DNA from: Spirochaetia bacterium
GTDB taxonomy: Bacteria > Spirochaetota > Leptospiria > Turneriellales > JAOUFE01
Direction of reading: 5' to 3'
Assembly: GCA_029858425.1 (NCBI GenBank)
Contig: JAOUFE010000002.1
Span: forward strand, 1-44,815
DNA length: 44,815 nucleotides
Positions 5,797 to 42,138 of this stretch are shown in pieces (position 1 is the first letter of the stretch; the number at the start of each line of letters is the position of its first letter). The position numbers were made by a program, and so were the translations under genes. The notes below the pieces were generated by a model, which was given only the letters and a program-made list of their open reading frames with translations, was not told the origin of the DNA and did no database searches.

Positions 5797-5876
5797 ATTA
5801 GCGTGTTTTTGGGCGCAAAGCGCCCAAAAACACGCATTTTACCGAATTCTGACGTGAATATCGAAGTTCTTGCCCA
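5797..5876. repeat. Palindromic intergenic repeat, copy A (central hairpin plus one arm; other arm degenerate)
   Basis: GCGTGTTTTTGGGCGC-AAA-GCGCCCAAAAACACGC (5801-5835) is followed by the arm ATTTTACCGAATTCTGACGTGAATATCGAAGTTCTTGCCC. That arm is the reverse complement of the left arm of copy H. Confidence 0.75.
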
Positions 5877-5963
5877 GACCCTTAGAGCTTCATATTCCCA
5901 CCAATTTGCAAAAAATTCTTTTGCACAGAGAATGCTGTTATTTTTATGACAAAGAAATAATTT

Positions 5964-6611
5964 ATGAGCGGTCTTGATCCCGTACTAATGCTTAAAACTT
6001 TACCGGCCGTAATTATCGGTCTGACGGTGCATGAATTCTCGCATGCATGGATGGCTTTTAAATTGGGCGATAAAACTGCCAATGATATGGGGCGACTTTC
6101 TTTTAATCCCCTGAAACATATTGACCCCCTGGGTTTCCTTTTTATTTTAATTGCTGGATTTGGATGGGCAAAGCCTGTCATGTTTAATCCGGAAAACCTG
6201 AAGCACAAGCATAGCGGCGAAATCCTGATTTCCCTGGCCGGCCCGGTTTCAAATCTTATTCTGGGAATACTTTGTTTTGTTATTGTCCGGGGTCTTTATG
6301 GAGTTGATTTTTTCCAGACAACCAACATTGGCCAGGGTACAGTCAACATTGTATTTATTGCAGGCATAATAAATTTTGGTCTTTTTATTTTTAATTTAAT
6401 TCCATTGCCACCTCTGGATGGATCCCATGTATATTTGACTTTTTTAAAAGTAAAAAATCCTGCTGTATTTAATTTGTTCTATAAATATGGTACAATGGCT
6501 TTATTTATTATTATTATCATTGAAAATCAAACAAAAATAACCTTGCTTCCTGTCCAACCGGCAATAAATTTTATTGTTAATTTACTGCTAAAATTATTGG
6601 ATTTTAATTAG
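5964..6611 (+). CDS. Site-2 protease family (peptidase M50) membrane metalloprotease
   Basis: HExxH motif in a TM helix (VHEFSHAWMA), a second motif NLIPLPPLDGSHV, and a multi-pass hydrophobic profile. Confidence 0.8.
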   Translation: MSGLDPVLMLKTLPAVIIGLTVHEFSHAWMAFKLGDKTANDMGRLSFNPLKHIDPLGFLFILIAGFGWAKPVMFNPENLKHKHSGEILISLAGPVSNLILGILCFVIVRGLYGVDFFQTTNIGQGTVNIVFIAGIINFGLFIFNLIPLPPLDGSHVYLTFLKVKNPAVFNLFYKYGTMALFIIIIIENQTKITLLPVQPAINFIVNLLLKLLDFN

Positions 6612-6618
6612 CATAAAA

Positions 6619-7080
6619 ATGAAAAAATCCATTAAAAAAATTCAACATAGAAGAAATATTTCGCGAGAACATGTAGATAAAAAACTTCGAAGACGGATTA
6701 CAATGTTTATTGTAATTGTTTCCTCCATTTTGAGCGTTGCAGTATACAACATTGCAATGAATAAAATTACTCCCCTGCCAAGCCTGCTTGGATTATGCGC
6801 GGGTACAATAATTGGTCTTGTGGCAGGACGCATGTTTAAAATGTCCTGGGATGAAGAAACGGAAAAAGTTGTTTCGCGTCTTGACAGGATTGGCGTGATT
6901 TTTCTCGTTTTATATATCGCTATTGAAATTGGCAGAAAATGGGTATTTGGTTACTGGATGCACGGCGCCAAATTAAATGCCTTCGGACTTATTTTCCTCG
7001 GTGGACTACTTTTGGGTAGATTACTTACAATGATGAAGAATATTAAAAAAGTCTTGATCCAGGAAGAAAAGCTGATTTAA
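6619..7080 (+). CDS. Hypothetical membrane protein
   Basis: 153-aa ORF with about four hydrophobic helices. It starts 8 nt after the M50 gene. Confidence 0.5.
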   Translation: MKKSIKKIQHRRNISREHVDKKLRRRITMFIVIVSSILSVAVYNIAMNKITPLPSLLGLCAGTIIGLVAGRMFKMSWDEETEKVVSRLDRIGVIFLVLYIAIEIGRKWVFGYWMHGAKLNAFGLIFLGGLLLGRLLTMMKNIKKVLIQEEKLI

Positions 7081-7127
7081 AATTGTAGCTCCGGAGGGAT
7101 GAGAGTTCGTCTCACCCCCCAAAAAAA

Positions 7128-7652
7128 CTAATTCCTTTTTGTTATCTTAAAAGTTACACGTCGGTTTTTTTCGCTATATGGTTCATCAATCAAGTACTTT
7201 GTTCCTACCCCTTGATATTTTAATTTATCAGAAGATATCCCATTTTTTACAAGTTTATCGTATAGAGTTTTTGCCCGCCCCGTTGATACATCCTGGTTTA
7301 TTTCATCGCTTCCGGATTGATCCGTGTGACCTTCAATCAACAGTACATATCCATCAGGAATTCTGGCGCTCAATTCTTTGAGCACGGGAAGTGATTTTTC
7401 AATCCATTCGGTGTTTGCAAGAGAAGTCTGATTTTTTTTGTAGCCCGTCACTTTTCTCTCGTCCAATTTTTTATTCATGTCTTCAAGCAGAGCTTCCGGA
7501 GAGCCTCCTTCTGATGAGAGAGAAACTTTCTCGGCAGGTTTTGCGGTTTCTACTACCGGTTTTGGTTCTTCTTTTTTTTGTGCTGAACCGCAATTGATTG
7601 TGTACACAGTTAGTACAAGAATCCATAATATGGACGTTTTTTTGAATATCAT
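7128..7652 (-). CDS. OmpA-family (peptidoglycan-associated) lipoprotein
   Basis: Lipobox LTVYTINC. The C-terminal OmpA-like domain reads LLIEGHTDQSGSDEINQDVSTGRAKTLYDKLVKNG...GVG...NRRVTFKI. Confidence 0.8.
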   Translation of the reverse strand: MIFKKTSILWILVLTVYTINCGSAQKKEEPKPVVETAKPAEKVSLSSEGGSPEALLEDMNKKLDERKVTGYKKNQTSLANTEWIEKSLPVLKELSARIPDGYVLLIEGHTDQSGSDEINQDVSTGRAKTLYDKLVKNGISSDKLKYQGVGTKYLIDEPYSEKNRRVTFKITKRN

Positions 7653-7923
7653 TTTTCAATCCTCATATGTTTTTTATTTAGAAATGTATTTATACAATCC
7701 ATTTTACAAAAATACATGTTATTTTTTTGTTTTGGGACAAACCATGAATTTTAACCTGGTTCCGTATTTGCACAAGGATTAAATAATTTCTGGAACAATT
7801 AAATTTTTGTATGATGCGCGTGTAAAGGAATTTTTTATTCATTTTTGTGACATAAAAATTTTATTTCACACGCCTGCTTGCCTGATTTTGTTTTACATGG
7901 CAAGTTTTGCTGCCGCCTTACAG

Positions 7924-9453
7924 CTAAAAACTCCATTGTATGCCTCCATTGATGGCTCCTGCAATGGGGTTTTCAGAAAAAATTGCATATTTTTCTCCCA
8001 AGCCTGCGCTTATTTGCAAATATATTTTCACGTTGGAATTTATGTTGAAATTGGAAAACAAAACCGGCATAACAGAAAAAGCCTCAAGTGAAATAAATGC
8101 GCTTATGCCCCATGTAAACAACTCGACATCCTGAAGTGAAACAATATTGAAAAAAAGGTAATGTTGATTAAATACAAATGGATCATATTCCGCCAGAACC
8201 CCGGAAAAAAACAACAGATGAAATTGATTCAGCAAGGTATTGCCTGTAGCATATTGTTTTTTGGTTTGATCAAGCGCATACGTTAAAGAGCGGTATGTAT
8301 TTCCTGGAATACCAAAACCATTAAAATAATAACCGGCCGAAATATCACAATTCATTTTTTTGAAGAATACAGCTGAATAGTTAAACGAAACAAGAGACTC
8401 CATAAAATATTGCTGACCGGAGTTTTCAACGGGAGTAAATGAATAATATGCAAAACCGGAAGTATTTTTTTCAGACAAGCCATATTGCGCTCTGCCATTG
8501 GATATCATCAGTTGCCAATCCATGTTCAAGGTTTTTAGAATCCTCCAGATCATTTCCGATCCAAATCCAAAATGGTTTTGCGTTTTACGGTCTGGATTGT
8601 TTTCCCAGAAAAAATACAGGTCAGTCTGGATTACCGGAAAATTAAAGCTGTTTTTTGCCATGAAAATGCTGGCCGGGTTTATCCAGTATAAATATTCAGA
8701 AATCTTTTTCCCTTCTTGATTGTTTCCCATATTATGATAGGGAATCAGGGGAATAAATAATAGATCCATATGATAGATGTCTCTTGAATATCCCATTTTT
8801 ATTCCTGGAAATGAAATCGGCGTGTATTCCTGTATAAATTCTCTTGGGGGCAGATAGCGTTCAAAAAAACTGACTGGATTTCTATAAAAGCTGTTTCCCA
8901 TCTTAAGAGGGAGAACTCCGCCCGACAGGCAAAAAATATTTTCATTGTTGATCGATAAATTCAGGTTTAACGATAATTCATAAGCGTAAAAATGTGTAAA
9001 GGATAATTCCTCATTAAACATGGGGTGAATCATGTCTATCGCTTGTCCGGATGGGCTTGAGTCTTTCATGGTTTTTAGCGCCTGTGCTTTTGTGTTTGTT
9101 GTGCTGCGAATTCCCAAGTCTATATTTGTGCTGAATATTCCGGAAAATCTTGCTTTTTGAGAATATCGTAATATCTGACTAAATATCCACGAGTCAAAAA
9201 CAGCAAAGTTTTGATCCGGTAAAAATATGGAAGTCCCGGGGAATTGTTTTTGAACAACAAGATCCATTTGCAATCCTGCTAATTTTTTTTTACCTGACTT
9301 GTTTTCATCACCGGAATTTTCAAATATATCAAACTCTGAGTTTGGTTCCTGGCCGGAATTTAGGGAATATATAAAACTACCATGATAAAGGCAGAATATG
9401 ATACCTGCCTGAAAAAAAGCTATATATTTTTTTCGAATTTTCATAACATTCAC
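7924..9453 (-). CDS. Probable outer-membrane beta-barrel protein
   Basis: 509-aa ORF with an N-terminal hydrophobic signal, aromatic-rich alternating sequence, and a C-terminal ...GGIQWSF (terminal Phe typical of OMPs). It is translationally coupled (4-nt overlap) to the upstream LolA-like gene. Confidence 0.55.
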   Translation of the reverse strand: MNVMKIRKKYIAFFQAGIIFCLYHGSFIYSLNSGQEPNSEFDIFENSGDENKSGKKKLAGLQMDLVVQKQFPGTSIFLPDQNFAVFDSWIFSQILRYSQKARFSGIFSTNIDLGIRSTTNTKAQALKTMKDSSPSGQAIDMIHPMFNEELSFTHFYAYELSLNLNLSINNENIFCLSGGVLPLKMGNSFYRNPVSFFERYLPPREFIQEYTPISFPGIKMGYSRDIYHMDLLFIPLIPYHNMGNNQEGKKISEYLYWINPASIFMAKNSFNFPVIQTDLYFFWENNPDRKTQNHFGFGSEMIWRILKTLNMDWQLMISNGRAQYGLSEKNTSGFAYYSFTPVENSGQQYFMESLVSFNYSAVFFKKMNCDISAGYYFNGFGIPGNTYRSLTYALDQTKKQYATGNTLLNQFHLLFFSGVLAEYDPFVFNQHYLFFNIVSLQDVELFTWGISAFISLEAFSVMPVLFSNFNINSNVKIYLQISAGLGEKYAIFSENPIAGAINGGIQWSF

Positions 9454-10202
9454 TCGCCTGCATTTTCCAGAGCGGAGGGATTAAAGTAGTAATCTGGAAT
9501 ATCAATGGCCTGTACTGATGACATTTTAATCAGCGAATAATCATTTTCCAGAAGCGCATTTACAATCTTGATTTGTACCGGGTAAATCTGGTTATGGTCA
9601 TCTGCTTCATACTTTACAAAATATATTTTTTTCAAAAGTATCCCGGAACGCGCATACGCCTCGAAATAAAGAATTTTTCCTTTAACGTAATAATATTTTA
9701 CCAGGCCATATGGAGCGTTTTTATTTATTGCCTGAAAAGATAAAATATAATTTTGCGTATTCCTGTCATGCTCGACCTTTATAAAATTGTATAAATTAAA
9801 AAGCGATGAGCTGACAATGTCGGTGAGATTTACGCTGCCGCTCAGGTTCATGCTCGAATTTATCACAAGCGTTTTTTGAATTTTCGGAAAATATTGCCAT
9901 AGCTGATCGTTGATCATCAGAATTTTTTTCCCCAGATCTCTTTCGGGATAAGAAAATATCAGCAGCGTTTTGTTGCTTTTACTGTACACCGTAAATGTTT
10001 TTACAATGGGCTTTTGGTTTGGAACAAAGGTCGCCAATTGAAAAATGGCCCGGTACTCTTTGTTGTTTACCGATAAAATTTTACGAAATTCTTCCAATAT
10101 TGCTTTTCCGTTATCCGTTTGATTTACGGTTTCTTCGGGATAGGCCGGAAACGAAAAAGAACCGGTTAGCAGGGTTGTTAATATAAAGAATTTTGTTTTC
10201 AT
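9450..10202 (-). CDS. LolA-like outer-membrane lipoprotein-sorting protein
   Basis: Signal peptide, then ...LLIFSYPERDLGKKILMINDQLWQYFPKIQKTLVINSSMNLSGSVNLTDIV... This matches the F.(Y)P.rd.G...L.....lW.Y.P......I......GS....D pattern of LolA-like sorting proteins (from memory). Confidence 0.65.
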   Translation of the reverse strand: MKTKFFILTTLLTGSFSFPAYPEETVNQTDNGKAILEEFRKILSVNNKEYRAIFQLATFVPNQKPIVKTFTVYSKSNKTLLIFSYPERDLGKKILMINDQLWQYFPKIQKTLVINSSMNLSGSVNLTDIVSSSLFNLYNFIKVEHDRNTQNYILSFQAINKNAPYGLVKYYYVKGKILYFEAYARSGILLKKIYFVKYEADDHNQIYPVQIKIVNALLENDYSLIKMSSVQAIDIPDYYFNPSALENAGE

Positions 10203-10286
10203 ACCATTAGTATAGGCTGGTTTTTTTGAATTGTAAATAGGACTTGTGTCCTTTTATTTTAAAATGAAATAGTACGTTTGTACTTT

Positions 10287-11246: not shown

Positions 11247-11287
11247 GGGAAAAACGAAATGTAGACAGGGTATTGGGTGACAAGAAA

Positions 11288-14080: not shown

Positions 14081-14145
14081 GAGCTTGGACATGAACCTCA
14101 ATAATCAGATCAAAATGTATTAAAATGCGCGTTCATGCCCAAGCT
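14081..14145. repeat. Palindromic intergenic repeat, copy B (internally deleted: one arm plus both termini, no central hairpin)
   Basis: GAGCTTGGACATGAACCTCAATAATCAGATCAAAATGTATTAAAATGCGCG joins directly to TTCATGCCCAAGCTC. The termini GAGCTTGG(A)CATGAAC / GTTCATGCCCAAGCTC are inverted repeats. A further arm fragment TTTCGAGTTCCTGCC follows at about 14150-14164. Confidence 0.65.
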
Positions 14146-14357
14146 CTGTTTCGAGTTCCTGCCGGGCTCGCGGCACATGCAGGAAAAATACGTATGGGGT
14201 GCCGGAAAACGCCGTTTGCAGGCAGGGGAAAGACATTTCCCCTTTAAAAAATAAATATTAAACAGCGGCAAATTTCCATGTCCGAAATTGCAACGGGGTG
14301 TAGCAGGTACTTAATCTTATTGACCGTACAAATACTGCTTTTACCATTTGATTTATT

Positions 14358-16849: not shown

Positions 16850-16872
16850 TATGACCAACGAATTGAGCCGGT

Positions 16873-17115
16873 GCGTGTTTTTGGGCTGCCTAAAAAGTCG
16901 AAAGTTCACCACGGAGGCGCGGGTGCGTTAGGCAATGCCTGCGCAAGCCATCAGGATGCACGGAGATTTTGATGAACTAACGCCTGAAAAGGCATTTATT
17001 TCGTATTTTCTCCGTGCGCTCCTGTCTTCGTGGTGATATCTTTTTCTTTTTGGACAGCCCCAAGAACACGTCAGTCTAAATCATTCTGACTGAATTTCGA
17101 GTTCATGCCATGCTC
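16873..17115. repeat. Palindromic intergenic repeat, copy C, with a ~165-nt structured insertion in the central hairpin
   Basis: The stem halves GCGTGTTTTTGGGCTG (16873-16888) and CAGCCCCAAGAACACG (17055-17070) are separated by sequence that is itself an imperfect palindrome. The standard arm TCAGTCTAAATCATTCTGACTGAATTTCGAGTTCATGCC follows. Confidence 0.7.
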
Positions 17116-17167
17116 CCCGTAGATAATTCTTGACAAAACGATATTCTGAATTAAAAGGACATGCGAT

Positions 17168-23380: not shown

Positions 23381-23521
23381 ATTACCCTCGCTGAAACTTA
23401 ACAGACAGCCAATATTATATTCACGAAAAACTTATTATTGCAACTCTCTTGTTTTGCAAATATATAAATCAGGATACACCTGCAAGCTTTTACCTGCTCT
23501 TCTATAAAATTGACAGGGGTA

Positions 23522-23655
23522 CTCGAGCATGGGCATGAACCTCCATAATCAGATCAAAATGTATTAAAATGCGTGGTTTTGGGGCGCGAAGCGCCCCAAA
23601 ACCACGTTAATTTATATCATTCTGACTGAATATTGAGGTTTATGCCCATGCTCGA
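23522..23655. repeat. Palindromic intergenic repeat, copy D (full length, best-preserved)
   Basis: Termini CTCGAGCATGGGCATGAACCTC (23522-23543) and GAGGTTTATGCCCATGCTCGA (23635-23655) are inverted repeats (20/21 by my count). The central hairpin is GCGTGGTTTTGGGGCGC-GAA-GCGCCCCAAAACCACG (23571-23606). Confidence 0.9.
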
Positions 23656-23739
23656 ATAATGAAATTGCGAAATGCAAAAAGAAAAATATAAGAGTTGACA
23701 ATACAAATTTTTGATGAATTTTCAATAAAAGGGAAAAAA

Positions 23740-25545: not shown

Positions 25546-25643
25546 AACTTATGGGGGATGTGTGCGCAAGAATTTTTCGTAAACGTGAAAAAAATAATAC
25601 GATGAACGGGACAAGGACGGGAAAGCCCGCGCGATCGTGCCTA

Positions 25644-25687
25644 TGCAGGAACTTCGATATTCAGGTCAGGATGTTGTAAAATACGCG
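25644..25687. repeat. Palindromic intergenic repeat, copy E (single arm only)
   Basis: TGCAGGAACTTCGATATTCAGGTCAGGATGTTGTAAAATACGCG aligns with the left arm of copy H (GAACTTCGGTATTCACGTCAGAATGCAGTAAAATGCGTG). No central hairpin follows. Confidence 0.55.
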
Positions 25688-25839
25688 TTTATTGAAAAAT
25701 TGTAGACGATCCCGACTGAGCATATGATATTAGTTACGAGAATTGGAACAGGAAAAAAATTTCAATGCGGTCGACATGGAAAAGAATACAATTCACACCA
25801 GAGTGGCCGAGCTATCCATCGACGAGGATGGAATTGTGC

Positions 25840-28764: not shown

Positions 28765-28837
28765 TGGGGGGATGGGACAAACAGATACCGCGGTGGGCGG
28801 CGTCCGCCGCGTCGCTATTTACCTGCGTAAGCGCCTC

Positions 28838-28958
28838 GGCATGAACCTCAACAATCGGATCAAAATGTATTAAAATGCGCGTTTTTGGGGCGCTTCGCGC
28901 CCCAAAAACGCGTCAGTCTAAATCATTCTGACTGAATTTCGGGGTCCGGCCCAAGCTC
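28838..28958. repeat. Palindromic intergenic repeat, copy F (full length)
   Basis: The order is GGCATGAACCTCAACAATCGGATCAAAATGTATTAAAAT, then hairpin GCGCGTTTTTGGGGCGC-TTC-GCGCCCCAAAAACGCG (28877-28912), then TCAGTCTAAATCATTCTGACTGAATTTCGGGGTCCGGCCCAAGCTC. Confidence 0.9.
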
Positions 28959-28982
28959 TCGTGAGTTTCAGGCACTTAAAAC

Positions 28983-29131
28983 ATGCTCCCAAACTCACGC
29001 AGGTAAATTGAAGAAAGATTCGCTTTTTCCCGAAAATTTCATCCCAAAATGGAAAATCCCTGCAAATTTTATACTCCCTGCCATAAAATCAAATTGGAAC
29101 GCTGGTTTTACCTGCGTGAGTTTGGGAGCAT
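28983..29131. repeat. Perfect 25-bp inverted repeat flanking a 99-bp segment, 65 nt upstream of the giant coiled-coil gene
   Basis: ATGCTCCCAAACTCACGCAGGTAAA (28983-29007) and TTTACCTGCGTGAGTTTGGGAGCAT (29107-29131) are exact reverse complements. Degenerate extra copies are TTTACCTGCGTAAG (28818-28831) and CGTGAGTTTCAGGCAC (about 28960-28975). Confidence 0.85.
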
Positions 29132-29195
29132 TACTTAAAAAAATCTCTATTAAAAAAAGGGTTGTAATTGCAGATTTCTTTATGAAAGTGACATA

Positions 29196-32100
29196 ATGTT
29201 GGAATTATCTATTCCTTTTTTGGCTTCGGTAATTATAACCATCCTGCTTCGCCGTCTTGACAAATCCAGCATTAATCTTCGAAAGTTAAAAACTTTAATT
29301 GAACGCGGGCAGAAGGAGCTGGTAGATATCGCTCTACAGAAAAAAGAAGAATTAAAAGACGCCAGCACCCAACTTGATTTGCTTCTTATCAATTCTGATA
29401 AATATCTTGGCGAACTTAAAAGCGAATTGACCGGTCTCAAAAATACCGTTTCTGAAGTTCAGGGCAGTCGCGCCGGTCTTCTCGAGATGGACGGCGAATT
29501 GCAGTCGCTGGAACTAACCACCAATTCTGTAAAAGATCAGCTTCGATATATAAACGAATCGCTCGATAAAATTGACCAGCATCAAAAGAAAATAAAAAAT
29601 CTGCAGGAATACATAAAAAATGTAGATAACGACGCATCAAAAATGGTAAAAAGTTTTCAAAAAGCCATTGGAGACAAGTCTGAAGAAGTTGTGCGCCTTA
29701 TGGAAGCCAAACTAAACGCAGTATCTTCCGAAACCCACGATTATCAAAAAAAACTTCGCGACGAATTGCTTGAAAAACACGGTATTTTGTCTCACAAGAT
29801 TACCGAGAGCTACAAGGAACTTGAGGGTTCTCTGCGAAATAGCGCTAGGGGGTTAACCGCGACTATCGAAAAAGAAGTCCACAGCCGTTTTTCGATCCTG
29901 GATGATCTGGACGTCCGGATCAGCGCCAATGAAAAATTATTAAGCGTTCATCTTCCGGATCTTGTGGAGCAGCTCAAACTGAAATTTCAGCATGATCTTA
30001 TAGACAGTCAAAATCAATTGGAGAATTTAAATAAATCTATTGTTCGCACCGAAGATGACTTGCGAAAACGTTTTGAAAAAATCCATGCAGAAATTGATGA
30101 AGAGCGGAATACCTTGTTTCAGAATTTTATTGAGGAAACAGACAAGATCAGGGATCAGATTCATTCTCTGGACTATGACACTCTTGCCAAGAAAGATGAA
30201 TTGATTCGTTCTGTCAAAGAAGAAGCGTCCAAAATCCAGGGACAAATTACGTCATTTGAGAAAATATACGATCATGCCCGGGAAAATATTTACAAGCAGG
30301 TCAATGCCCAGGAAGAGGAGCTTGCAAATCATCTGGTCAGACTTCAACTGGCGATTCAATCTTCTCTCGATACGGTCAACCAGGAGTCTGACAGAAAAAA
30401 AACTGAAATTGAACTTTTTCTCGCCGGGGTAATTAAATCTTCAAGCGAACAAATGGCGTCTCTGGAAAAATCTCTTGAACATAAATCAGAAAATCTGGCG
30501 GAAAAGCATAAAGAAAATGAAGAAAAGGTAAGCGATCGCCACAAAAAGTTTGAAAATTTTGTCGCAAGGGCTATGATTCAGGTGGAAGAAACATCGAGGG
30601 AAAAAGACGAAGAGTTTCTGGAAAAAATCAGCCAGTTTGAAAAAAACCTGAAACAAGGCGAGAGCGAAATTGAAAAAAGGCTTGGAAAATTTGAAAAGCT
30701 GATAGAAACTTCTTTGCGCCTGCTTGATTCAAAAGCAGCCGACAAAAAGGATGAACTTTCAGAATTTGTCGATAATGAGTTTGATAAAGTAAAAACCAAA
30801 ATTGATTATTTTCATGAGTTATTTAACGAAAACTCGGGATCCTTGACCGAGCGTGTGCGTGAAAAAGAAGATCAGCTTTTACTTCTTGTTGAAAACTATA
30901 AAAAAGCGGCTGAAAATACCGCTTCTGAAATAAACATTCAATCTGAAAAAGAAAAAGAAAAATTAGGCGAATTTATCACCGGTCAGTTGAATCTGGCAAA
31001 ATCAAAATTTGACTCATTTCAAGGCCTCTATGAAACTGGAATGAATCAGGTTGCCAGTAGCGTGGACAAGGCTCAGAACTATTTCAATGAGCAATTGTCC
31101 GGATTTGAATATAGTGTACAGAATACCATTGATTCGCTTATTCATGAAACCGGAGAACGCAAAAAAGGAGCTGTTGAATTTTTTTCTGAACAATTCAGAC
31201 AAATGGAAACAAAATTCCATGAGCTCAATAAAAATTTTATGGAAAATACGGAAGAATATAACGCCGGAATGAATGAGCGCGAGAATCTTCTAAAAGAAAT
31301 GACTTCCAGGGCGACAGCCTTTATCCAGGAAAGCTCGGCAGCCATTGCTGAGGACGCGCAAAGACAACAGCGCGATTTCTCGCAATCTATTCAGGCAGAA
31401 CTCAAGAATGTTGAAGACAAACTCATAAACTTTCAAAATACATATTCGGAATCCATTCATTCGTTTGAAGACAGCCTTGAAAAAAAAGATCGGGAGCTGG
31501 AATCCAGATTATCTCATATGGAGGATGTTTTGGATTCGTCGATCCGGATGCTGAATGAAGAGTCCGGGAAGCGCCGCGAAGAAATCAGCGCATATGCCGA
31601 TACGGAACTCTCCCGCTTTGATAAAAAAATAGATGAAATAAAAACTATATATGAAAAAAATTCTAACTTTGTAAGCGGTAGTCTGAAAGTCCATGAGTCA
31701 GAAATCAATCAGCTGGTAGATAATTTCAGGGACATTGTACATGCTTCGGTTCAACAAATTGCCGATGAAGCCGAAGCCAGGAAAGACGAGATACAGGGCT
31801 ATACGGCAGACCAGTTCGACGCACTTCAAAGTAAAATTGAAACTTTTAACAAGATCGTCAACGAGGGTTCCGAAAATTTCCAGGAAACTGTCCATTCGTC
31901 AACAGAGGGTCTGGAAAGCAAGGTTTCCGGAATTGAGGAAGAAATAAAAAAAGTTTTTGAGAGTATTCATGCTGAAAGTCAAAAACACAAAAAAGAATTA
32001 AGTGATTTAATTTCAAAAGAAATTAAAGTAATAGATGACCGACTGGAAGACTTTGCAAAACTTTATCAAACATCCGAAAATTCGATTGAGGAGAATTTTG

Positions 32101-34742
32101 ACACGCACCAGGAAAGCCTGATGGAAACGATAAAAGTTATTCAGCAGACGATTGCCGTTTCAATTCAGGAAATTCACGACGAGTCAGACAGGAAAAAAGC
32201 AGAAATTCACAAATATGCGCAATCCGAAAGTGCTGAATTAAATGCAAAAATTTCAGAACTGGACAATGTATTTAACCGGGCGATAGAAGAAATTAAAGCA
32301 AAAGTCCGGGAAAATGATACCCAGATGGAAATCGAGAAAGGATCTCTTGAGAAATCAATTCGCAGCGCAATTGATCAGGTGTTTGACGAGAGCGAAGACC
32401 GAAAAAATGAATTTATAAAATCTGCCGAAGAAGAACTCGGAAAGTTTCATGAAAAAATGGGCTCCTTTCAGTCGGTATACAACGAGAGTATTGAGAACAT
32501 ACGCAAGAAATCTGAAATGGCTGCCGATGAGGTGAACGGACTTATTTCGGGTTTAAATACTGTCATTGATAATGCCATGGCGAAGTTTGAAAATCTTGGC
32601 TCCGAGGAAATGGAAGAATTGCAGGTTGAGATTAACAAGGCCGTTGAATCTGTACAGAAACGTGCTGAAGAAGTATTTCAGGAATCGTACGATCAGTTTG
32701 TTTTTGATGTCAAGGAATTTCGGGAAGAGTTTAATCGTGTTCAAAATCAAATTGAATCTCTGGAGTCCGTCAGCGAAGAGCGCTATAAACAATTAAATAA
32801 CGAAATTATCGATGTAAAATCCAAAATCCAGGACAACCTTTCTTCCTATGTTCAGCAGATCAAGAAATCGGCAAAAGATTTAACCGAAGTTTTTGAAAAG
32901 GATTTATCCGGGAAGCTTTCCTATGTATCGAAACAAATTGAAAGCCTTGAGGGGGAGATTGAAACTCTGCGAAACAGGTCAGTAGAGGAAATTGAAGGCA
33001 AGGTTTCCCCGCTTTACAGTAAACTGGGAAATATCGAAAAAAATCTGCTTGAATCGCAAAAACATTTAATGGATAAATGGAGCGAGGAAACAGCCCAGGT
33101 AATGAAAAAAATTTCAGAAAAGGAAATTTTATTTTCCCAGTCAGCCGAAAAGTGGGAAACACAATTTGAAGCCATGACCCGCAATGCGCGCGATAGCGTT
33201 CACAAAGGTTTTGTAGATCTCGAGAAAAAGCGTACGGATCTTCTGGACAGTTTTGACAGCACAATAAATCAAAAAATGTCCGATGTCGAAAGATTTTCCG
33301 GAGAATGGTCGGAAAAAAATGAAAAAACTCTTTCCGAATTAATATCGTCCTTTAAGTTAAAAATGCAGGAAAAAGAAGATTCCGCGTTTGATAAAATGCA
33401 GCAAATGTCGGCCAGGTTTGGCGAAATAAAAAAAGAAATTCAGACCAGACATGACTCGGTGCTGGAAGTACTACAGGCCGAGAAATCAAGTCTTGAAAAA
33501 GAGATGAAGCAATTAAGCGAAAAGCAATTGCAGCTCTTTAATATGGAAATGGACGGGCGCATTGAGAAAACAGCAGAGATGATGCAGACAAGTTCAGACG
33601 CCACCATTGCAAAAATTGAAAAAGAGATTTCGGGCTTAAGATCAGAGTTTAAGGAAATTGAGGAATCAACCCGCGAAATGATAGCAAGTTTTACGTTTGA
33701 TAAAAAAGAATTGTTTAACAAAATTGATAAAGAAACAAAACTGACAGCAAAAGAAATAATGGGTGTTCAAGAGGCCTTTAACCGACTGAAAGATGAAATG
33801 AAAATTCTGGATAAGGCTGAAAAGAGTACCGAAAAGGTAAGAAATGTTGTCAAGATTCTTGAAGACAAACTAAACGCTGCCGAAGGCAAAAGCGCTGAAA
33901 TTCAGGATATTTTTCGCCGCGTCGATGAACTTAAAGAAATGCGCCTGAAACTGGATGCGGAATTAATGATGCTTGCCCAAAAAAGGGAAAAGGTCGACAA
34001 ACTGGAAGACCAGCTCTCGCTTATTTTAAATCTGCGTGATGAAATTGAAGAAAAAGGCGAACAGCTTGATATGGTAAAAAGCAAGGTGCAAGATATTATT
34101 GGCGCCCAGGAACAGGTAGATGTATATCGAAGCCGCCTTGATAATATTCTCGAAGAATTTGTTCAGCAGCATACGCTTGTGGAAAATGTTCTTGGTACTA
34201 TTTCAGGTCACCAGAAATCCGTTGATGAAATTAGCGGGCGCATGGAAGCCTTAAACGGCACGGTCAAGGTTGTCGATGAAAGATCCAGGTTGTTAAAAGA
34301 CCATATGGATTCTCTTGAAGTAAAAATGGAATCTCTAAAAAAACACGAAACAGAAATTGTCGATGTTAAAAATAAATTTCTCGAGATTGAAGACTTGATC
34401 CAGGACATTGAAAATCGTAAAAAGCAAATTGATACTTTGCGCAAGCGTTTCGAGGAAATGAGAATCTCCATGAATGACAGCGTTATTTCCATAGAAAAAA
34501 TTGAACACAATGCCGAAACAAAAGTAAAACAGCTCACCGACCTGATTAATGCTTCGGAATATACAGAAAAAATCACTTCAAAGGTATCCGGGAAAGTGGC
34601 TCCCCAAAAAATAGGCGTCGACAAGAAAAATATGATTATTCGGCTTGGGGAAATGGGATGGTCTGCAGATGAAATTGCTTCAAAAATTAATATGGATTTA
34701 ACTTCCATTGAAACAATTCTTTCAACATCTATCCGCCAATAG
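29196..34742 (+). CDS. Giant (1848 aa) membrane-anchored coiled-coil repeat protein with a small C-terminal HTH-like domain
   Basis: It is one uninterrupted ORF. It has an N-terminal TM helix (IPFLASVIITILLRRL) and over 1700 aa of E/K/L/I/S-rich helical sequence. A motif of the form (D/E)ES..RK.E(I/F)..(Y/F)......L...(K)(I/L)..F...(Y/F) recurs about every 69 residues. The last ~35 aa are MIIRLGEMGWSADEIASKINMDLTSIETILS. Confidence 0.8.
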   Translation: MLELSIPFLASVIITILLRRLDKSSINLRKLKTLIERGQKELVDIALQKKEELKDASTQLDLLLINSDKYLGELKSELTGLKNTVSEVQGSRAGLLEMDGELQSLELTTNSVKDQLRYINESLDKIDQHQKKIKNLQEYIKNVDNDASKMVKSFQKAIGDKSEEVVRLMEAKLNAVSSETHDYQKKLRDELLEKHGILSHKITESYKELEGSLRNSARGLTATIEKEVHSRFSILDDLDVRISANEKLLSVHLPDLVEQLKLKFQHDLIDSQNQLENLNKSIVRTEDDLRKRFEKIHAEIDEERNTLFQNFIEETDKIRDQIHSLDYDTLAKKDELIRSVKEEASKIQGQITSFEKIYDHARENIYKQVNAQEEELANHLVRLQLAIQSSLDTVNQESDRKKTEIELFLAGVIKSSSEQMASLEKSLEHKSENLAEKHKENEEKVSDRHKKFENFVARAMIQVEETSREKDEEFLEKISQFEKNLKQGESEIEKRLGKFEKLIETSLRLLDSKAADKKDELSEFVDNEFDKVKTKIDYFHELFNENSGSLTERVREKEDQLLLLVENYKKAAENTASEINIQSEKEKEKLGEFITGQLNLAKSKFDSFQGLYETGMNQVASSVDKAQNYFNEQLSGFEYSVQNTIDSLIHETGERKKGAVEFFSEQFRQMETKFHELNKNFMENTEEYNAGMNERENLLKEMTSRATAFIQESSAAIAEDAQRQQRDFSQSIQAELKNVEDKLINFQNTYSESIHSFEDSLEKKDRELESRLSHMEDVLDSSIRMLNEESGKRREEISAYADTELSRFDKKIDEIKTIYEKNSNFVSGSLKVHESEINQLVDNFRDIVHASVQQIADEAEARKDEIQGYTADQFDALQSKIETFNKIVNEGSENFQETVHSSTEGLESKVSGIEEEIKKVFESIHAESQKHKKELSDLISKEIKVIDDRLEDFAKLYQTSENSIEENFDTHQESLMETIKVIQQTIAVSIQEIHDESDRKKAEIHKYAQSESAELNAKISELDNVFNRAIEEIKAKVRENDTQMEIEKGSLEKSIRSAIDQVFDESEDRKNEFIKSAEEELGKFHEKMGSFQSVYNESIENIRKKSEMAADEVNGLISGLNTVIDNAMAKFENLGSEEMEELQVEINKAVESVQKRAEEVFQESYDQFVFDVKEFREEFNRVQNQIESLESVSEERYKQLNNEIIDVKSKIQDNLSSYVQQIKKSAKDLTEVFEKDLSGKLSYVSKQIESLEGEIETLRNRSVEEIEGKVSPLYSKLGNIEKNLLESQKHLMDKWSEETAQVMKKISEKEILFSQSAEKWETQFEAMTRNARDSVHKGFVDLEKKRTDLLDSFDSTINQKMSDVERFSGEWSEKNEKTLSELISSFKLKMQEKEDSAFDKMQQMSARFGEIKKEIQTRHDSVLEVLQAEKSSLEKEMKQLSEKQLQLFNMEMDGRIEKTAEMMQTSSDATIAKIEKEISGLRSEFKEIEESTREMIASFTFDKKELFNKIDKETKLTAKEIMGVQEAFNRLKDEMKILDKAEKSTEKVRNVVKILEDKLNAAEGKSAEIQDIFRRVDELKEMRLKLDAELMMLAQKREKVDKLEDQLSLILNLRDEIEEKGEQLDMVKSKVQDIIGAQEQVDVYRSRLDNILEEFVQQHTLVENVLGTISGHQKSVDEISGRMEALNGTVKVVDERSRLLKDHMDSLEVKMESLKKHETEIVDVKNKFLEIEDLIQDIENRKKQIDTLRKRFEEMRISMNDSVISIEKIEHNAETKVKQLTDLINASEYTEKITSKVSGKVAPQKIGVDKKNMIIRLGEMGWSADEIASKINMDLTSIETILSTSIRQ

Positions 34743-34750
34743 AGCCTGGA

Positions 34751-34797
34751 CTGATTTAAATCATTCTCACTAAATTTTGAGTTCATGCCCAAAAGCT
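34751..34797. repeat. Palindromic intergenic repeat, copy G (single arm only)
   Basis: CTGATTTAAATCATTCTCACTAAATTTTGAGTTCATGCCCAAAAGCT matches the right arm of copies C, F and H. It begins 9 nt after the giant gene's stop. Confidence 0.6.
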
Positions 34798-36542: not shown

Positions 36543-36604
36543 AGAAAAAAGACTTTTCAGGCTATTGGCTAAATAAAGAATGCTTTCTCAATTGGAGATA
36601 TCAT

Positions 36605-37063: not shown

Positions 37064-37123
37064 TTTTTCAGACGAAACAAACCCTTGCAAAAATACATTC
37101 CGGGAAAAACCGGATTTTAAATC

Positions 37124-37855: not shown

Positions 37856-38475
37856 CCTTTTTGAATAATTTTCCCTTGTTTATCATACATAATTCCGGTT
37901 CCCTGACGTTTGGAGTTGCGAAATTGTCCTTTATAGTATGCCCCATTGCCGTACTTTCTCATTCCAGAAATCATATTGTCATCTTTAAATTCTCCGCTAA
38001 CAATGAGTTCATCCGAAAAAGTTATGGTTCCATTCCCGTCTCTTTTTCCATCTTTCCATTCGCCTTCGTACTTGCTGCCATCTACATATACCATTACACC
38101 GTTGCCGTACATTCTATCTTCTTTCCAACCGCCTTCGTATTTTTGCCCACTGGAAAAAGCCATAACTCCTTTACCGTCTCTCGTTCCCTTATGAAAATCT
38201 CCTTCATAAAGCGCGCCAGTTGAGTCTGCATACTGAAGTTTCCCTTTTCCATCGAATCTGCCAAGAGAAAAATTTCCCTCGTATTTTGATCCGTCTGAAA
38301 AAATAAAGACTCCCTTTCCATTTTCACAGCCGCCTTCCTGGCAGGCTCCCTTTGGGACGTCCAGAGATGATAAATTCAGATAAACCTTTTTCTTTACATA
38401 GGAAAGAACAGTTACATGTAAAGCAATGATAAACACGGGAATTAAAGCTAACATTATTTTTTTTCTCATAAACAA
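37822..38475 (-). CDS. MORN-repeat protein with an N-terminal membrane anchor/signal
   Basis: It has about seven tandem Y.G.(W/F).(D/N)G...G.G repeats (e.g. YEGEWKDGKRDGNGTITF, YEGGWKEDRMYGNGVMVY). Its 3' end overlaps the convergent rnhB gene by 34 nt. Confidence 0.8.
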   Translation of the reverse strand: MFMRKKIMLALIPVFIIALHVTVLSYVKKKVYLNLSSLDVPKGACQEGGCENGKGVFIFSDGSKYEGNFSLGRFDGKGKLQYADSTGALYEGDFHKGTRDGKGVMAFSSGQKYEGGWKEDRMYGNGVMVYVDGSKYEGEWKDGKRDGNGTITFSDELIVSGEFKDDNMISGMRKYGNGAYYKGQFRNSKRQGTGIMYDKQGKIIQKGQWSEDKYAGE

Positions 38476-38543
38476 CCTTTGTAACTGGAAATTCTATAGT
38501 CATTTCAAGTGAATTACACAAATTAGAAACTGTTTTTTATAAA

Positions 38544-39533
38544 TCACCAGATATCGATAACCTCTTTTAGTGGGTCCGCTCCTGCAATCTTTTTTTGATC
38601 AACCAGCCATTCATAGGAAAAAACCTGGTTTCTTCCATGTTCTTTTCCATAATACAATGCCTGGTCGGCTTTTTTTAGAGTATAAAATATATTTAGTGGA
38701 TAATCAATTGCAGTATAACCTATGCTTATGGTGAGTGTTTGTATCTGTGGAAATGATGAATTCTGGATGGTTGTTCGGAGGCGTTCGGCAGCATGAAAAA
38801 CATTTCTATGGGTAGCTTCCAGGGTTAGAATAACAAACTCTTCTCCGCCTATTCTAAAAATCGTATCCTGTGCGCGAATGTTTTCTTTCAGGATTCTGGA
38901 AAACAAGATGAGAACTTCATCTCCAATCATGTGGCCAAAACTATCATTAATTTTTTTAAAAAAATCAATATCTACAAGAATCAGAAAATCCTGTTTCCCG
39001 TAATCGTAGTTCGGATCTTGCAATGTGTTGACTTTTCGATCAAAGGCCCGCCGATTATAAAGGTTTGTTAAAAAATCCCTCTCGTTAGATCGTATTGCGT
39101 AGTAAAAATTAATGAATATATTAAAAAATACAGGGGTAACCGGATCCGGATGTTCGATTATTTCGTTAATCTGGATTTTAATTATATATTGCATTTCTCT
39201 TTCAAAACTTAAAGGAAAAATATAAGTGGTCATATGCCCTGTTTTTGAAATATCGGATATTCCACTCGAAAAGCATTCATTTAGGTCGGGATGATCAAGC
39301 AACAATTCCTCGGCGGAATTTTTTTCGAACATATTTATCAGGGTGATGATTGCATGTTTGTTTTTTTGATGCGGGAATTTTCTTTTAAAATTTACCTTAT
39401 AGTAATATAATTTAATATCCGGAAATATTTCGGCCAAAACTTTTGAAGACTCCCTGAAAAGGCTGATTTCATCTTCGCTCTTGCTTAATATTTCAAGAGC
39501 CTTCCATAACTCTAACCATTTGATTTTATCCAT
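38544..39533 (-). CDS. Diguanylate cyclase (GGDEF domain) with an uncharacterised N-terminal domain
   Basis: DFLTNLYNRRAF..., ILVDIDFFKKINDSFGHMIGDEVL..., RIGGEEFVIL (GGEEF active site), ADQALYYGKEHGRNQV. Confidence 0.8.
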   Translation of the reverse strand: MDKIKWLELWKALEILSKSEDEISLFRESSKVLAEIFPDIKLYYYKVNFKRKFPHQKNKHAIITLINMFEKNSAEELLLDHPDLNECFSSGISDISKTGHMTTYIFPLSFEREMQYIIKIQINEIIEHPDPVTPVFFNIFINFYYAIRSNERDFLTNLYNRRAFDRKVNTLQDPNYDYGKQDFLILVDIDFFKKINDSFGHMIGDEVLILFSRILKENIRAQDTIFRIGGEEFVILTLEATHRNVFHAAERLRTTIQNSSFPQIQTLTISIGYTAIDYPLNIFYTLKKADQALYYGKEHGRNQVFSYEWLVDQKKIAGADPLKEVIDIW

Positions 39534-39663
39534 AATTATTGTTCAAAGTATCGTCCCTTCATCGAGACAAGAGCAATAAATTTTTATCCTTTGGCATCAC
39601 CGTTCTATTAATAATATTTTCCTTTCACTCAATTTATAGTAAAATAGGCCTATCGGGGAAAAA

Positions 39664-40035
39664 ATGAATTTATTTGAGGGAATGACCTTTATGTATAGAA
39701 GACTCATATCCAGAGATGATATTCTTGAATTTGCCAGAATCAGCGGCGACCATGGAATACATCATACCGACCAAAGCCAGAAGCTGTTGGCTCATGGTCT
39801 ATTAATCGCTACACTACCAACAAAACTGGGCGGCGATTTAAACTTTATTGCAAGAGAGATAAGTTTTGAGTTTCTAAAAGGAGTTTATGAAGGGGAAACG
39901 ATAACCTGTATCGGAAAAATTGAAAAACTCATGGAACAAGACACCAGATTCAAGGCAGAACTCTTATTCTCCTGCAGCAATGAAAACGGCGAAATTGTTT
40001 TAAAAGGAAAAACAAAAGGGATGATCTGGAAATAA
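39664..40035 (+). CDS. MaoC-like/hotdog-fold dehydratase-family small protein
   Basis: FARISGDHGIHHTD resembles the MaoC-type (S)GD.NP.H.D motif. The size (123 aa) fits a single hotdog fold. Confidence 0.5.
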   Translation: MNLFEGMTFMYRRLISRDDILEFARISGDHGIHHTDQSQKLLAHGLLIATLPTKLGGDLNFIAREISFEFLKGVYEGETITCIGKIEKLMEQDTRFKAELLFSCSNENGEIVLKGKTKGMIWK

Positions 40036-40048
40036 AAAATGCTTCTTA

Positions 40049-40184
40049 CCCAAGCTCAATAGCGCCCCCAGAACTTCGGTATTCACGTCAGAATGCAGTA
40101 AAATGCGTGGTTTTGGGGCGCGAAGCGCCCCAAAACCACGCTAATTTAAATCATTCTGGTTGAATCTTGAGCTTCATGCCCAGG
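40049..40184. repeat. Palindromic intergenic repeat, copy H (full length)
   Basis: The hairpin GCGTGGTTTTGGGGCGC-GAA-GCGCCCCAAAACCACGC (40105-40141) is identical to copy D's. The arms are GAACTTCGGTATTCACGTCAGAATGCAGTAAAAT and TAATTTAAATCATTCTGGTTGAATCTTGAGCTTCATGCCCAGG. Confidence 0.9.
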
Positions 40185-40280
40185 CACAAGAATTATACTC
40201 TTTTCTGACATTCGACGAAAAATATTCTTTTCATTTTGAGCAGATCGAAAATTTTATCGTTGAATTCACAAGGAGAAAAT

Positions 40281-40670
40281 ATGCCAAAAGTAAACAGATA
40301 TGTAGATATCAGCACAGTAGACCGGGAAGCGAAAAAAGATTATATTGACCGTCATTCCCCGTTTATACATTGCGCTGGAAGCGCAAAAGCCGGTGAGAAG
40401 TTTCAAGTTAGCGTCAAAGTAGGTAAGGAATATACTCATCCGGACGATCCAGATCATTTTATAGAATCGGTAAAACTCTATAATGGGGAATCTATTCTCG
40501 GAGAAGCCCGTTTTTTATCAGGAACCCTCGGAGGATTGGGAGCAAAATCCCAGGCAGAAGTTACTTTTAATTTAGTCCCGTCGTCGGGGAAATTACATTT
40601 AACGGCCGTCGCATACTGCACCAAGCATGGCTTATGGGAATCTGATCCTGTTGAAGTTGCCGTAGCATAA
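40281..40670 (+). CDS. Superoxide reductase (desulfoferrodoxin/neelaredoxin-type Fe-binding domain)
   Basis: Candidate ligand motifs are RHSPFI (E/K-H-x-P type), HPDDPDHFIESV (H...H) and YCTKHGLWES (C..H). AGGAG (40271-40275) precedes the ATG at 40281. The track start at 40236 is upstream of the RBS. Confidence 0.75.
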   Translation: MPKVNRYVDISTVDREAKKDYIDRHSPFIHCAGSAKAGEKFQVSVKVGKEYTHPDDPDHFIESVKLYNGESILGEARFLSGTLGGLGAKSQAEVTFNLVPSSGKLHLTAVAYCTKHGLWESDPVEVAVA

Positions 40671-40724
40671 GACTAAATTACTTGACAGACCATTTTTAAG
40701 ACTCTGTTTGTCCAAGCACGAAAT

Positions 40725-40797
40725 GCTGCCATAGCTCAACTGGTAGAGCAGCTGCCTTGTAAGCAGCAGGTTGGGGGTTCAATTCCCTCTGGCAGCT
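40725..40797 (+). tRNA. tRNA-Thr (anticodon TGT); CCA not encoded
   Basis: Acceptor GCTGCCA/TGGCAGC, D arm GCTC-AACTGGTA-GAGC, anticodon arm GCTGC-CTTGTAA-GCAGC, T arm GGGGG-TTCAATT-CCCTC. Confidence 0.9.
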
Positions 40798-40803
40798 AAG
40801 GAA

Positions 40804-40886
40804 GGGCAGGTACCCGAGTGGCCAAAGGGGACAGACTGTAAATCTGTTGGCTAGCGCCTACGAAGGTTCGAATCCTTCCCTGCCCA
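40804..40886 (+). tRNA. tRNA-Tyr (anticodon GTA), class II with a long variable arm; CCA not encoded
   Basis: Acceptor GGGCAGG/CCTGCCC, anticodon arm ACAGA-CTGTAAA-TCTGT, long variable arm, T arm GAAGG-TTCGAAT-CCTTC. Confidence 0.9.
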
Positions 40887-41016
40887 CATTCCAGGCAAAC
40901 GCCAAACCAATGAGTGAGGAGATTAAACAATAGAATAAATGGAGAGAATTTTGAGAAGGCGCACAAATGTGTTTTTTTAAAATTAGCTCCGGTTATCTAT
41001 TTGTCCAATAACAGCG

Positions 41017-41991
41017 ATGGATTCTCCGATGGAAGGGATCCGTGACGAGCTTTTATCCGGGAATTTTTTTGAAGCCGGAAAAAAGTCCAAACTATGGCTG
41101 CAATCCTTTTCTTATTCCGAAAAAAAAAGCCCCCAATATAAAAAGGCAGCCGAAGCATTTGTGTATTCACAATATTTTCTTCACCGCCAGGATCGTATTT
41201 TTAGAATGCAAACCGACGATCAAAGAGCCCGGTATTATCTGGAGTTGTTGAAGGAATTAAATCAAATTAGAGCCGAAAACGGATTTGAAAAAGCTGACAA
41301 TCCTGTCTGGAATAGCGTCGATCTGTATCTGCATGCGAGAATAGCTGAAAATTATGCAAGGGCATTTGCCGGTCAAAAGTCGTATAATCTGGATCAAGAT
41401 GAGATAATTCAGTTTTCCGTATCGCTGCTGGTTCTGGAGAAATGGAATGCGGCCATTGAAGCCCTTGATTTTTTGCTTCGCTTGAACCGCCACAGTCCTG
41501 TCATCAACTATCTAATGTCATATGCGTATGATAAATCCGGACAAAAGATAAAGTCTCATTTTCATTTGCGAGAAGCGCTTTTTTTCAAACCCGATGTTAT
41601 TTCACAATATCCTGAATTTTTGACGGGAGATATTTTTGAAAAAATATGGCATTCATCATATAATGAAGAAGGTGCGGATGCGGCAGGAAAATCTCGTTAC
41701 AGCGAATTTTCCCTTCTTTTGGAAATTAATGGAGTTTATAAGAGCAATCTGGATATTTCTGAAAAAGAGCTTTTGAATATCGAGAGAAATTTTTTAGATA
41801 AATATTCTCTTTATGAAAAGGATAAAAAAAATTCAAAAACTGATATTTCCGAATTATTGCGGTATTTATGCTGGCTAATTTCATCATATCAGAGCCTTGC
41901 TGTTTACGACAAGGTAGAATTTTATCGTAAAAAAATGATCGATATTAGCCCGGAAACCTGGGAAACTTTTCATAGTAAAAGAATTCAATAA
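41017..41991 (+). CDS. Hypothetical helical protein
   Basis: 324-aa ORF with helical/TPR-like character. I recognise no signal peptide and no motif. Confidence 0.45.
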   Translation: MDSPMEGIRDELLSGNFFEAGKKSKLWLQSFSYSEKKSPQYKKAAEAFVYSQYFLHRQDRIFRMQTDDQRARYYLELLKELNQIRAENGFEKADNPVWNSVDLYLHARIAENYARAFAGQKSYNLDQDEIIQFSVSLLVLEKWNAAIEALDFLLRLNRHSPVINYLMSYAYDKSGQKIKSHFHLREALFFKPDVISQYPEFLTGDIFEKIWHSSYNEEGADAAGKSRYSEFSLLLEINGVYKSNLDISEKELLNIERNFLDKYSLYEKDKKNSKTDISELLRYLCWLISSYQSLAVYDKVEFYRKKMIDISPETWETFHSKRIQ

Positions 41992-42020
41992 TCACTTGCT
42001 TGCAAAAGCCCACCGAACCT

Positions 42021-42138
42021 GGCAGGAACGCGAAATTCCGTCCGAATGATTTTGAGTGAAGCAGTTTTGTGGCGATTCGCGCCCCAAAACTGCGCATGTT
42101 TCCGCATTCTCACGTGCATACCAAAGTTCATGCTTGGG
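42021..42138. repeat. Palindromic intergenic repeat, copy I (diverged full-length)
   Basis: The order is GGCAGGAACGCGAAATTCCGTCCGAATGATTTTGAGTGAA, then imperfect hairpin GCAGTTTTGTGGCG-ATTC-GCGCCCCAAAACTGC (42061-42093), then GCATGTTTCCGCATTCTCACGTGCATACCAAAGTTCATGCTTGGG. Confidence 0.7.

Follow-up and report, generated by a model that had tools for sequence, protein, structure and literature searches.

A family of palindromic intergenic repeats, probably miniature mobile elements, in an uncultured Leptospirales bacterium

What spread a palindromic repeat through the intergenic DNA of an uncultured spirochete, and does it serve its host? The question is raised by a 44,815-bp stretch of DNA (here, the window; contig JAOUFE010000002.1 of Spirochaetia assembly GCA_029858425.1, positions 1 to 44,815; G+C content 39.8%), in which an initial annotation listed nine copies (A to I) of a repeat with a GC-rich central hairpin and considered both non-autonomous mobility and bidirectional intrinsic termination as possible roles. 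The repeats are very probably a non-coding family of MITEs (miniature inverted-repeat transposable elements) of an uncultured Leptospirales bacterium, presumably moved in trans by a DDE transposase. They are identified as MITEs because of their termini, 4-bp target-site duplications, the insertion of one copy (F) into another repeat and the existence of elements with shared ends and differing interiors. Like MITEs in general, they are short, non-coding and dispersed in many copies, with terminal inverted repeats and flanking duplications.

With copies D, F and H and the reverse-complemented copy I as its basis, an nhmmer profile detected the family at nine places in the window and at none besides (E values from 1e-43 to 7e-5), and a repeat search of the window against itself recovered the same copies, so that the initial list was complete; its coordinates were correct to within a few bases. 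The 16-mer of the right arm, with up to three mismatches, matched six times in the window versus 0.85 expected, and 0 of 100 shuffles gave as many matches. The nine copies total 1070 bp, corresponding to 2.4% of the window, 26% of its intergenic DNA and a local density of one copy per 5 kb, and 8 of the 10 intergenic gaps of ≥200 bp hold a copy. All nine are intergenic when compared with gene calls, as was proposed, and coding capacity is nil, with stops in all six frames of the 128-bp consensus. Four copies are full length (D, F, H, and I) and five are partial (A, B, C, E, and G).

Further copies were obtained from JGI metagenomes, which were scanned with the pattern AAAATGCGNNNTTTTGGGGCGC; this pattern fixes the left half of the hairpin, bar three stem positions. 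The scan returned 45 loci, >30 of them from the single sample Ga0224495 (~40% G+C), and 57 copies were found by profile in 368 kb of Ga0224495 loci, none of which overlaps the window. The Ga0224495 loci derive from the same or a very close organism, because at least two other short repeats are common to these loci and the window. The closest ribosomal protein L19 belongs to a Leptospirales metagenome-assembled genome (MAG; 69% identity), followed by Leptonemataceae, and the relatives of an 1848-aa protein of the window are labelled Leptospiraceae or Turneriella; because of these matches, the host is placed as an uncultured member of the Leptospirales. The AlaDH gene was dropped as a taxonomic anchor, its best matches showing just 41 to 45% identity. 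The same strain (99.94 to 100% identity) is present in ENA assembly ERZ27296335 and Logan run SRR7132115, and exact-protein look-ups returned no organism besides this strain. Contigs of the other same-strain assemblies stop inside copies A, C, D, and H, and the Logan contig stops inside H, which is how dispersed repeats behave in assembly.

Alignment of 39 copies with both ends, and of a cleaner subset of 33 (alignment A1), gave a 128-bp consensus, GAGCTTGGGCATGAAC CTCAATAATCAGATCAAAATGTATTAAAAT GCGCGGTTTTGGGGCGC GAA GCGCCCCAAAACCGCGC TAATTTAAATCATTCTGACTGAATTTCGA GTTCATGCCCAGGCTC, in which a GC-rich central hairpin of 17 bp lies between two A/T-rich arms, with 16-nt terminal inverted repeats on the outside. 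Conservation of the termini, GAGCYTGGGCATGAAC and GTTCATGCCCARGCTC, extends across the 33 to 39 aligned copies (helix 1 is 76% paired), and the terminal inverted repeats of the initial annotation were borne out at a length of 16 nt. The arms had been described as mirror images; two A/T-rich arms are indeed present, but they are not exact mirrors and belong to two types, alpha and beta, in varying combinations, of which alpha/beta is commonest, beta/beta is found in H and alpha/alpha is found in loci L262 and L237. Copy D is an imperfect palindrome whose 68-nt arms are 76% complementary. Pairwise identities between copies have a median of 73% and reach 95% at most. Since the median is this low and five of the nine window copies have decayed, the sequences suggest an old family without fresh expansion.

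Exact 4-bp direct repeats adjoin the alignment-defined ends of 7 of the 39 copies, compared with 0.43 expected, and 0 of 2000 permutations reached seven; target-site duplications, the proposed check on mobility, therefore occur far above chance. With one mismatch allowed, 4-bp flank repeats are found at 13 of the 39, and three further duplications emerge once small indels at the right terminus are allowed. The exact 4-mers are CATC, CAAA, CATA, CTTT, TCTC, TTGA, and CTTT, and because none is palindromic, the inverted repeat does not extend unnoticed into them.

Copy F (positions 28831 to 28958, plus strand; nhmmer E = 3.4e-43; profile match 28824 to 28964) is full length, with an alpha-like left arm, a beta right arm and a hairpin at 28877 to 28913. 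It is flanked by TTTACCTGCGT (28818 to 28828) and CGTGAGTTTCAGGCAC (28960 to 28975), which when joined read TTTACCTGCGTGAGTTT..., a sequence that is intact at 29107 to 29138 and, as its reverse complement, at 28976 to 29007. Copy F thus splits, between TTTACCTGCGT and GAGTTT..., a solo 32-nt terminal repeat of a second element, and its flanks (GCGT/TCGT) differ by one substitution. The insertion provides a paralogous empty site, the intact repeat lying 150 to 280 bp away. The second element is itself a MITE-like repeat of ~163 bp with 32-nt terminal inverted repeats (TTTACCTGCGTGAGTTTGGGAGCAT); it is intact beside F at 28976 to 29138, and copies with 75 to 95% identity are present in seven Ga0224495 loci (L268, L262, L237, L261, L245, L249, and L239).

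Elements with the termini of the present family also enclose differing interiors, being 63 to 66 bp long in copy B and L262:1635-1697, long in copy C and L246, and ~240 bp long in L268. In addition, other terminus fragments lie within ~25 nt of about a dozen of the 39 copies, including H, and point to nested or adjacent insertion. The termini, the 4-bp duplications, the F insertion, the shared ends and the 57 further copies all support the earlier proposal of a non-autonomous mobile element.

Several observations weigh against this identification. Two copies have longer flank repeats, of 8 bp (L242) and 6 bp (L239), and duplications in the window are unclean, with AATA/AAGA at H, GCGT/TCGT at F and none at B, D, or I; the duplication evidence consequently derives from the metagenome copies. 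Neither an orthologous empty site nor a presence/absence polymorphism was found, the other assemblies being of the same strain (99.9 to 100%) with the same copies, and the nearest relatives, L147 and L272, allow no empty-site comparison, because both are without copies and almost without synteny with the window. The search for empty sites therefore yielded the paralogous one at F but no orthologous one in the same-strain assemblies or the nearest relatives. A search of the window and of the 368 kb of related loci brought up no autonomous element with the termini of the family, no pair of termini that encloses a gene and no long repeat common to the loci. The sole insertion sequence seen, an IS66-family element at window positions 1 to 218, was rejected as the partner, since its ends (GTAAGCGTCAATTTTCGCC) are unrelated to those of the family. 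Finally, conservation of the left half of the hairpin is partly a matter of ascertainment, this half having been covered by the selection pattern.

The window begins inside the IS66-family element, whose end is at 212 to 218 (CGCTTAC); the element is whole at approximately L281:12170-14527, and the ENA contig contains its tnpA, tnpB, and 517-aa tnpC genes in full. The GAG at the start of the termini and the 4-bp duplications are compatible with the IS5 family (IS5/IS427 groups) as a possible source of the transposase, but neither the window nor the 368 kb of loci yielded an IS5-like gene or an end to match.

We infer that a DDE-type transposase encoded elsewhere would bind the termini and mobilise the elements in trans. 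A staggered 4-bp cut would be made at the target, the element would be inserted and repair would leave the 4-bp duplication. If the termini alone matter, elements with different interiors could be moved by the same ends. Copies would then build up where they are tolerated, just past stop codons and in long divergent promoter regions, and their later decay would yield A, B, C, E, and G as partial forms.

When folded, the consensus gives a single long hairpin, at −77.6 kcal/mol (z = −12.8) for RNA and −47.8 kcal/mol (z = −11) for single-stranded DNA. Across the 33 copies, the central helix is 94% paired, and the arm and terminus helices are 76 to 81% paired with few compensatory changes. Compensatory double changes are seen at three stem positions (CG in 20 copies and UA in 8, GC in 16 and AU in 11, and GC in 16 and UA in 11). 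The right half of the hairpin, which was free to vary under the selection pattern, covaries nonetheless, and in six copies outside the pattern the hairpin is 81% paired, compared with 63 to 68% for the arms. The covarying triplets mark subfamilies, and some copies are chimeric, with left and right triplets from different subfamilies. Loop variants come together with their reverse complements in similar numbers (GAA in 10 copies and TTC in 8, GGA in 3 and TCC in 4, GAC in 1 and GTC in 2, and AAA and TTT, and GAG and CTC, in 1 each). This pairing is also found among copies that share arms and stem triplet, and a loop flip separates the two most similar copies (95% identity). The initial annotation regarded the hairpins of D and H as identical, which is correct over 16 bp; the outermost pair differs. 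Because compensatory stem changes are accompanied by loops in both flipped forms, the pattern suggests that the stem is kept paired by DNA-level palindrome dynamics and not by selection on RNA. Pairing could be maintained through extrusion of a hairpin or cruciform with template switching or arm-to-arm correction, and such maintenance would account for the presence of each loop in both flipped forms.

The initial annotation read the hairpin as a bidirectional intrinsic terminator, and the host might keep the elements mainly in this capacity or as transcriptional insulators that stop polymerase arriving from either side. A lenient terminator scan flagged D on both strands and F and H on the minus strand, with stems of 16 to 17 bp and the terminator-like tails CATTTTAATA, ATTTTACTGC, or TAATTTATAT, and the hairpin outlasts the arms even in the diverged copies outside the pattern. 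Furthermore, co-directional copies often begin 0 to 30 nt past the upstream stop codon, at a greater distance from the start codon that follows, although this placement also fits tolerance of insertions that spare promoters. The distribution of copies argues against termination as their main role. Within the window, they occupy 4 of the 7 divergent gaps (A, B, D, and E, as originally described) and 5 of the 30 co-directional ones; the 7 convergent gaps hold none. Crude ORF calls put 23 of 64 copies at divergent junctions, which have no need of a terminator, 40 at co-directional and 1 at a convergent junction, compared with 46, 186, and 46, respectively, of 278 background junctions. Orientation behind genes is random (21 versus 19), even though the strands provide U-tracts of unequal quality, CAUUUUAAUA on one and UAAUUUAAAU or none on the other; the plus strand of F has none. 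On both strands the GC stem reads TTTT-GGGGCGC-loop-GCGCCCC-AAAA, and because AAAA directly flanks it, a U-tract is possible solely after the extended stem of 16 to 17 bp, with a U-run of just 3 to 4 nt. Of the nine window copies, B, C, E, and G are without an intact hairpin, and the occurrence of loops in both flipped forms suggests that the pairing is kept up in the DNA. Retention mainly for termination is thus improbable, and a dedicated role as a transcription terminator is unlikely for the family. Transcripts may be terminated or cut by RNase III at some copies, and such transcriptional effects, 5′-UTR structure included, are probably incidental. A promoter-like TCAATA-17-TAAAAT motif in the left arm (9/12) was not counted, as it is equally common in shuffled sequence.

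The same hairpin could be attributed to an RNA gene or cis-regulatory RNA family, with the palindromic fold selected at the RNA level, or to REP/BIME-like palindromes spread by a RAYT protein (Y1 HUH, TnpA_REP) acting on a single-stranded DNA hairpin. The exceptional RNA fold and the compensatory changes at three central-stem pairs would be expected of a structured RNA. However, the single-stranded DNA fold is equally exceptional, the arms are nearly devoid of compensatory change, and the flipped loops alter the RNA but leave the DNA palindrome as it was. The covarying triplets define subfamilies of which mismatched chimeras exist, orientation relative to genes is unbiased and Rfam hits fall far below gathering scores; selection on RNA is highly improbable as the origin of the fold. 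Spread by RAYT would accord with the strongly kept central palindrome, with loop flips that suggest extrusion of DNA and with the density of copies in intergenic DNA, in which the family resembles the likewise dense, hairpin-forming REP/BIME palindromes. REPs are palindromes of 20 to 40 nt that lack terminal repeats and duplications and cluster at 3′ ends between convergent genes, whereas the present unit is 128 bp long, carries 16-nt terminal repeats far from the hairpin, is associated with 4-bp duplications and avoids convergent junctions. Derivatives without the hairpin keep both termini (B and L262:1635-1697), a conserved 5′ tetranucleotide of the GTAG type is lacking and no HUH/RAYT domain was detected among the 30 window proteins scanned. 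Mobilisation by RAYT is therefore scarcely credible.

Within the preferred explanation, that of MITEs moved by their termini, the hairpin could still be a functional module that extrudes in vivo and not a mere passive relic, a possibility that we consider rather unlikely. Such a module would hold itself perfectly paired, flip its loop and provide the crossover point for exchange of alpha and beta arms. It might be needed for mobilisation, bringing both termini together on single-stranded or cruciform DNA, or the host might have exapted it, at hundreds of loci, for RNA processing or as an insulator. If this were true, spread of the MITE would depend on DNA secondary structure besides termini.

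The remaining window copies illustrate how the element varies. Copy D (23525 to 23653, plus strand; profile match 23517 to 23658; E = 3.7e-43) is a full-length alpha/beta copy of 129 bp, bounded by the 39-copy alignment, with a hairpin at 23571 to 23607; it is the 68-nt self-complementary palindrome described above and lies between divergent genes. Copy H (40062 to 40187, plus strand; profile match 40055 to 40192; E = 1.3e-41) is full length and beta/beta, with a hairpin at 40105 to 40141, and the other terminus fragment near it, CCCAAGCTC, lies 4 nt to its left. Copy I is full length in inverted orientation (42014 to 42141, minus strand; profile match 42012 to 42148; E = 1.5e-39) and is the most diverged full copy in the window.

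Among the partial forms, A (5792 to 5882, minus strand; E = 1.5e-20) retains the hairpin (5801 to 5836), a beta-type arm and one terminus, GTTCTTGCCCAGACCC (5867 to 5882); its second arm is degenerate, its complementarity to the left arm of H is 92%, and it lies between divergent genes. Copy B (14081 to 14146, plus strand; E = 4e-11), also between divergent genes, had been treated as a mere truncated fragment, but both termini are present (GAGCTTGGACATGAAC ... GTTCATGCCCAAGCTC) with an alpha left arm, and the hairpin and right arm have been lost by internal deletion. A 43-bp stretch adjoining B (14207 to 14249) is 91% identical to Ga0224495 L228:3747-3789 and may be another small repeat. Copy E (25636 to 25690, plus strand; E = 1.9e-10), between divergent genes, consists of the left terminus and a beta-like left arm alone. 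Copy G (34753 to 34797, plus strand; E = 7.4e-5) consists of the right arm and right terminus alone and begins 11 nt after the stop codon of the gene for the 1848-aa protein.

Copy C (16872 to 17116, plus strand) is a long variant that begins 23 nt past a stop codon and is without a left terminus. It has one half of the hairpin at 16872 to 16890 and the other half, with right arm and terminus, at 17056 to 17116 (E = 2.4e-13), and a module of ~165 bp (16891 to 17055) lies between them in place of the loop. The module recurs in L246 (alignment with L246:440-650). This loop-replacing module, ~150 to 165 bp long (window 16891 to 17055; L246:470-620), has its own inverted repeat, CACCACGGAGG... / ...CTCCGTG...CGTGGTG, and no conserved ORF or Rfam match was found for it in C and L246.

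Three other features of the window were recorded. A third repeat at 44661 to 44771 (also at L269:5531-5643 and L145:18050-18381) is 97% identical to a Ga0224495 contig, which ends inside it; the same-strain ENA contig ends ~170 bp past the window, the repeat may be the edge of a longer one, and nothing matching it was found in Rfam. The 1848-aa coiled-coil protein (29196 to 34742) is lineage-specific, with one homolog of 63% identity (P0002) and other relatives of ~1035 to 1311 aa at 28 to 67% coverage, the named sources being Leptospiraceae, Turneriella, and Spirochaetes MAGs. A 417-aa ORF (3736 to 4989) consists of an HPPK domain (folate pathway) fused to ketopantoate hydroxymethyltransferase (PanB), a fusion also present in the relative L272.

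Outside this strain and the metagenome, no homologous copy was found in scans of species-representative genomes. The nearest of these genomes contains none, the family is absent from the relative with the 63%-identical ortholog of the 1848-aa protein, and plasmids and viral contigs gave no real match. The Rfam scan, proposed as a check, detected no family at gathering score, and the window's sole hits at that score are three tRNAs; in E-value scans of D, C, and F, matches were far below threshold, the best being a plant miRNA hairpin with 30 bits versus the 100 required. The earlier remark that no named family could be recognised thus holds for Rfam, plasmids, viral contigs and species-representative genomes. 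The terminus 10-mer appears in paper text merely through primer coincidences, and one exact match to the right-arm 20-mer among the species-representative genomes, in a Clostridia MAG, was taken as chance.

The hairpin core pattern matched 63 loci in the species-representative genomes, mostly palindromic repeats of Leptolyngbya-like cyanobacteria, with single matches in Anaerolineales, Pseudomonadales, and Spirochaetales MAGs. These loci were rejected as members of the family, as their arms are not homologous and the core is either forced by the pattern or convergent. The exact 25-nt core, TTTTGGGGCGCnnnGCGCCCCAAAA, is the centre of an abundant palindromic repeat of Leptolyngbya-like cyanobacteria (L082-L144; e.g., L082:1476-1500 and L085:2073-2097), with >25 loci in one cyanobacterial MAG and single palindromes in Anaerolineales and Pseudomonadales MAGs. 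A shared core with non-homologous arms probably reflects convergence.

Comparable elements are well known. Correia elements of Neisseria (CREE/NEMIS) are ~100 to 155 bp long, have terminal inverted repeats and account, with hundreds of copies, for a few percent of the genome; co-transcription with neighbouring genes is frequent, and the elements form long hairpins, have 26-nt termini and a TA duplication, and have documented promoter, IHF-binding and RNase III functions. The ERIC/IRU and RUP/BOX repeats of enterobacteria and pneumococci are intergenic imperfect palindromes of ~107 to 127 bp, found in both orientations and in truncated or deleted forms. The present family is similar to Correia, ERIC, and RUP elements in its size, its abundance and its foldback shape. 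In described features it differs from Correia elements in its 16-nt termini and variable 4-bp duplications, and from ERIC/IRU and RUP/BOX in sequence and host, as well as in its 17-bp GC hairpin, flip-flop loops and modular arms. With prokaryotic MITEs in general it shares a short, non-coding, multicopy and mostly intergenic nature, terminal inverted repeats and short duplications; in contrast to known MITEs, it matched nothing beyond its own organism and one metagenome, its local density is very high, and no partner insertion sequence was found for it in the window or the related loci. It is a new sequence family of a well-known kind, in which only the flip-flop loops and modular arms go beyond the ordinary, and it leaves knowledge of mobile elements or termination unchanged.

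A census of prokaryotic MITEs (PMC11602168) ranked Leptospirales first among orders, at a median of 154 MITEs per genome. The host of the present family is uncultured, and the family is therefore absent from such genome-based censuses. The flip-flop loops, stem triplets and arm chimeras constitute a clean data set on palindrome evolution in mobile elements. At the level of sequence, the family exemplifies the abundance of MITEs reported for Leptospirales, and it matters for the binning, assembly and annotation of this uncultured lineage, whose assemblies break inside its copies.

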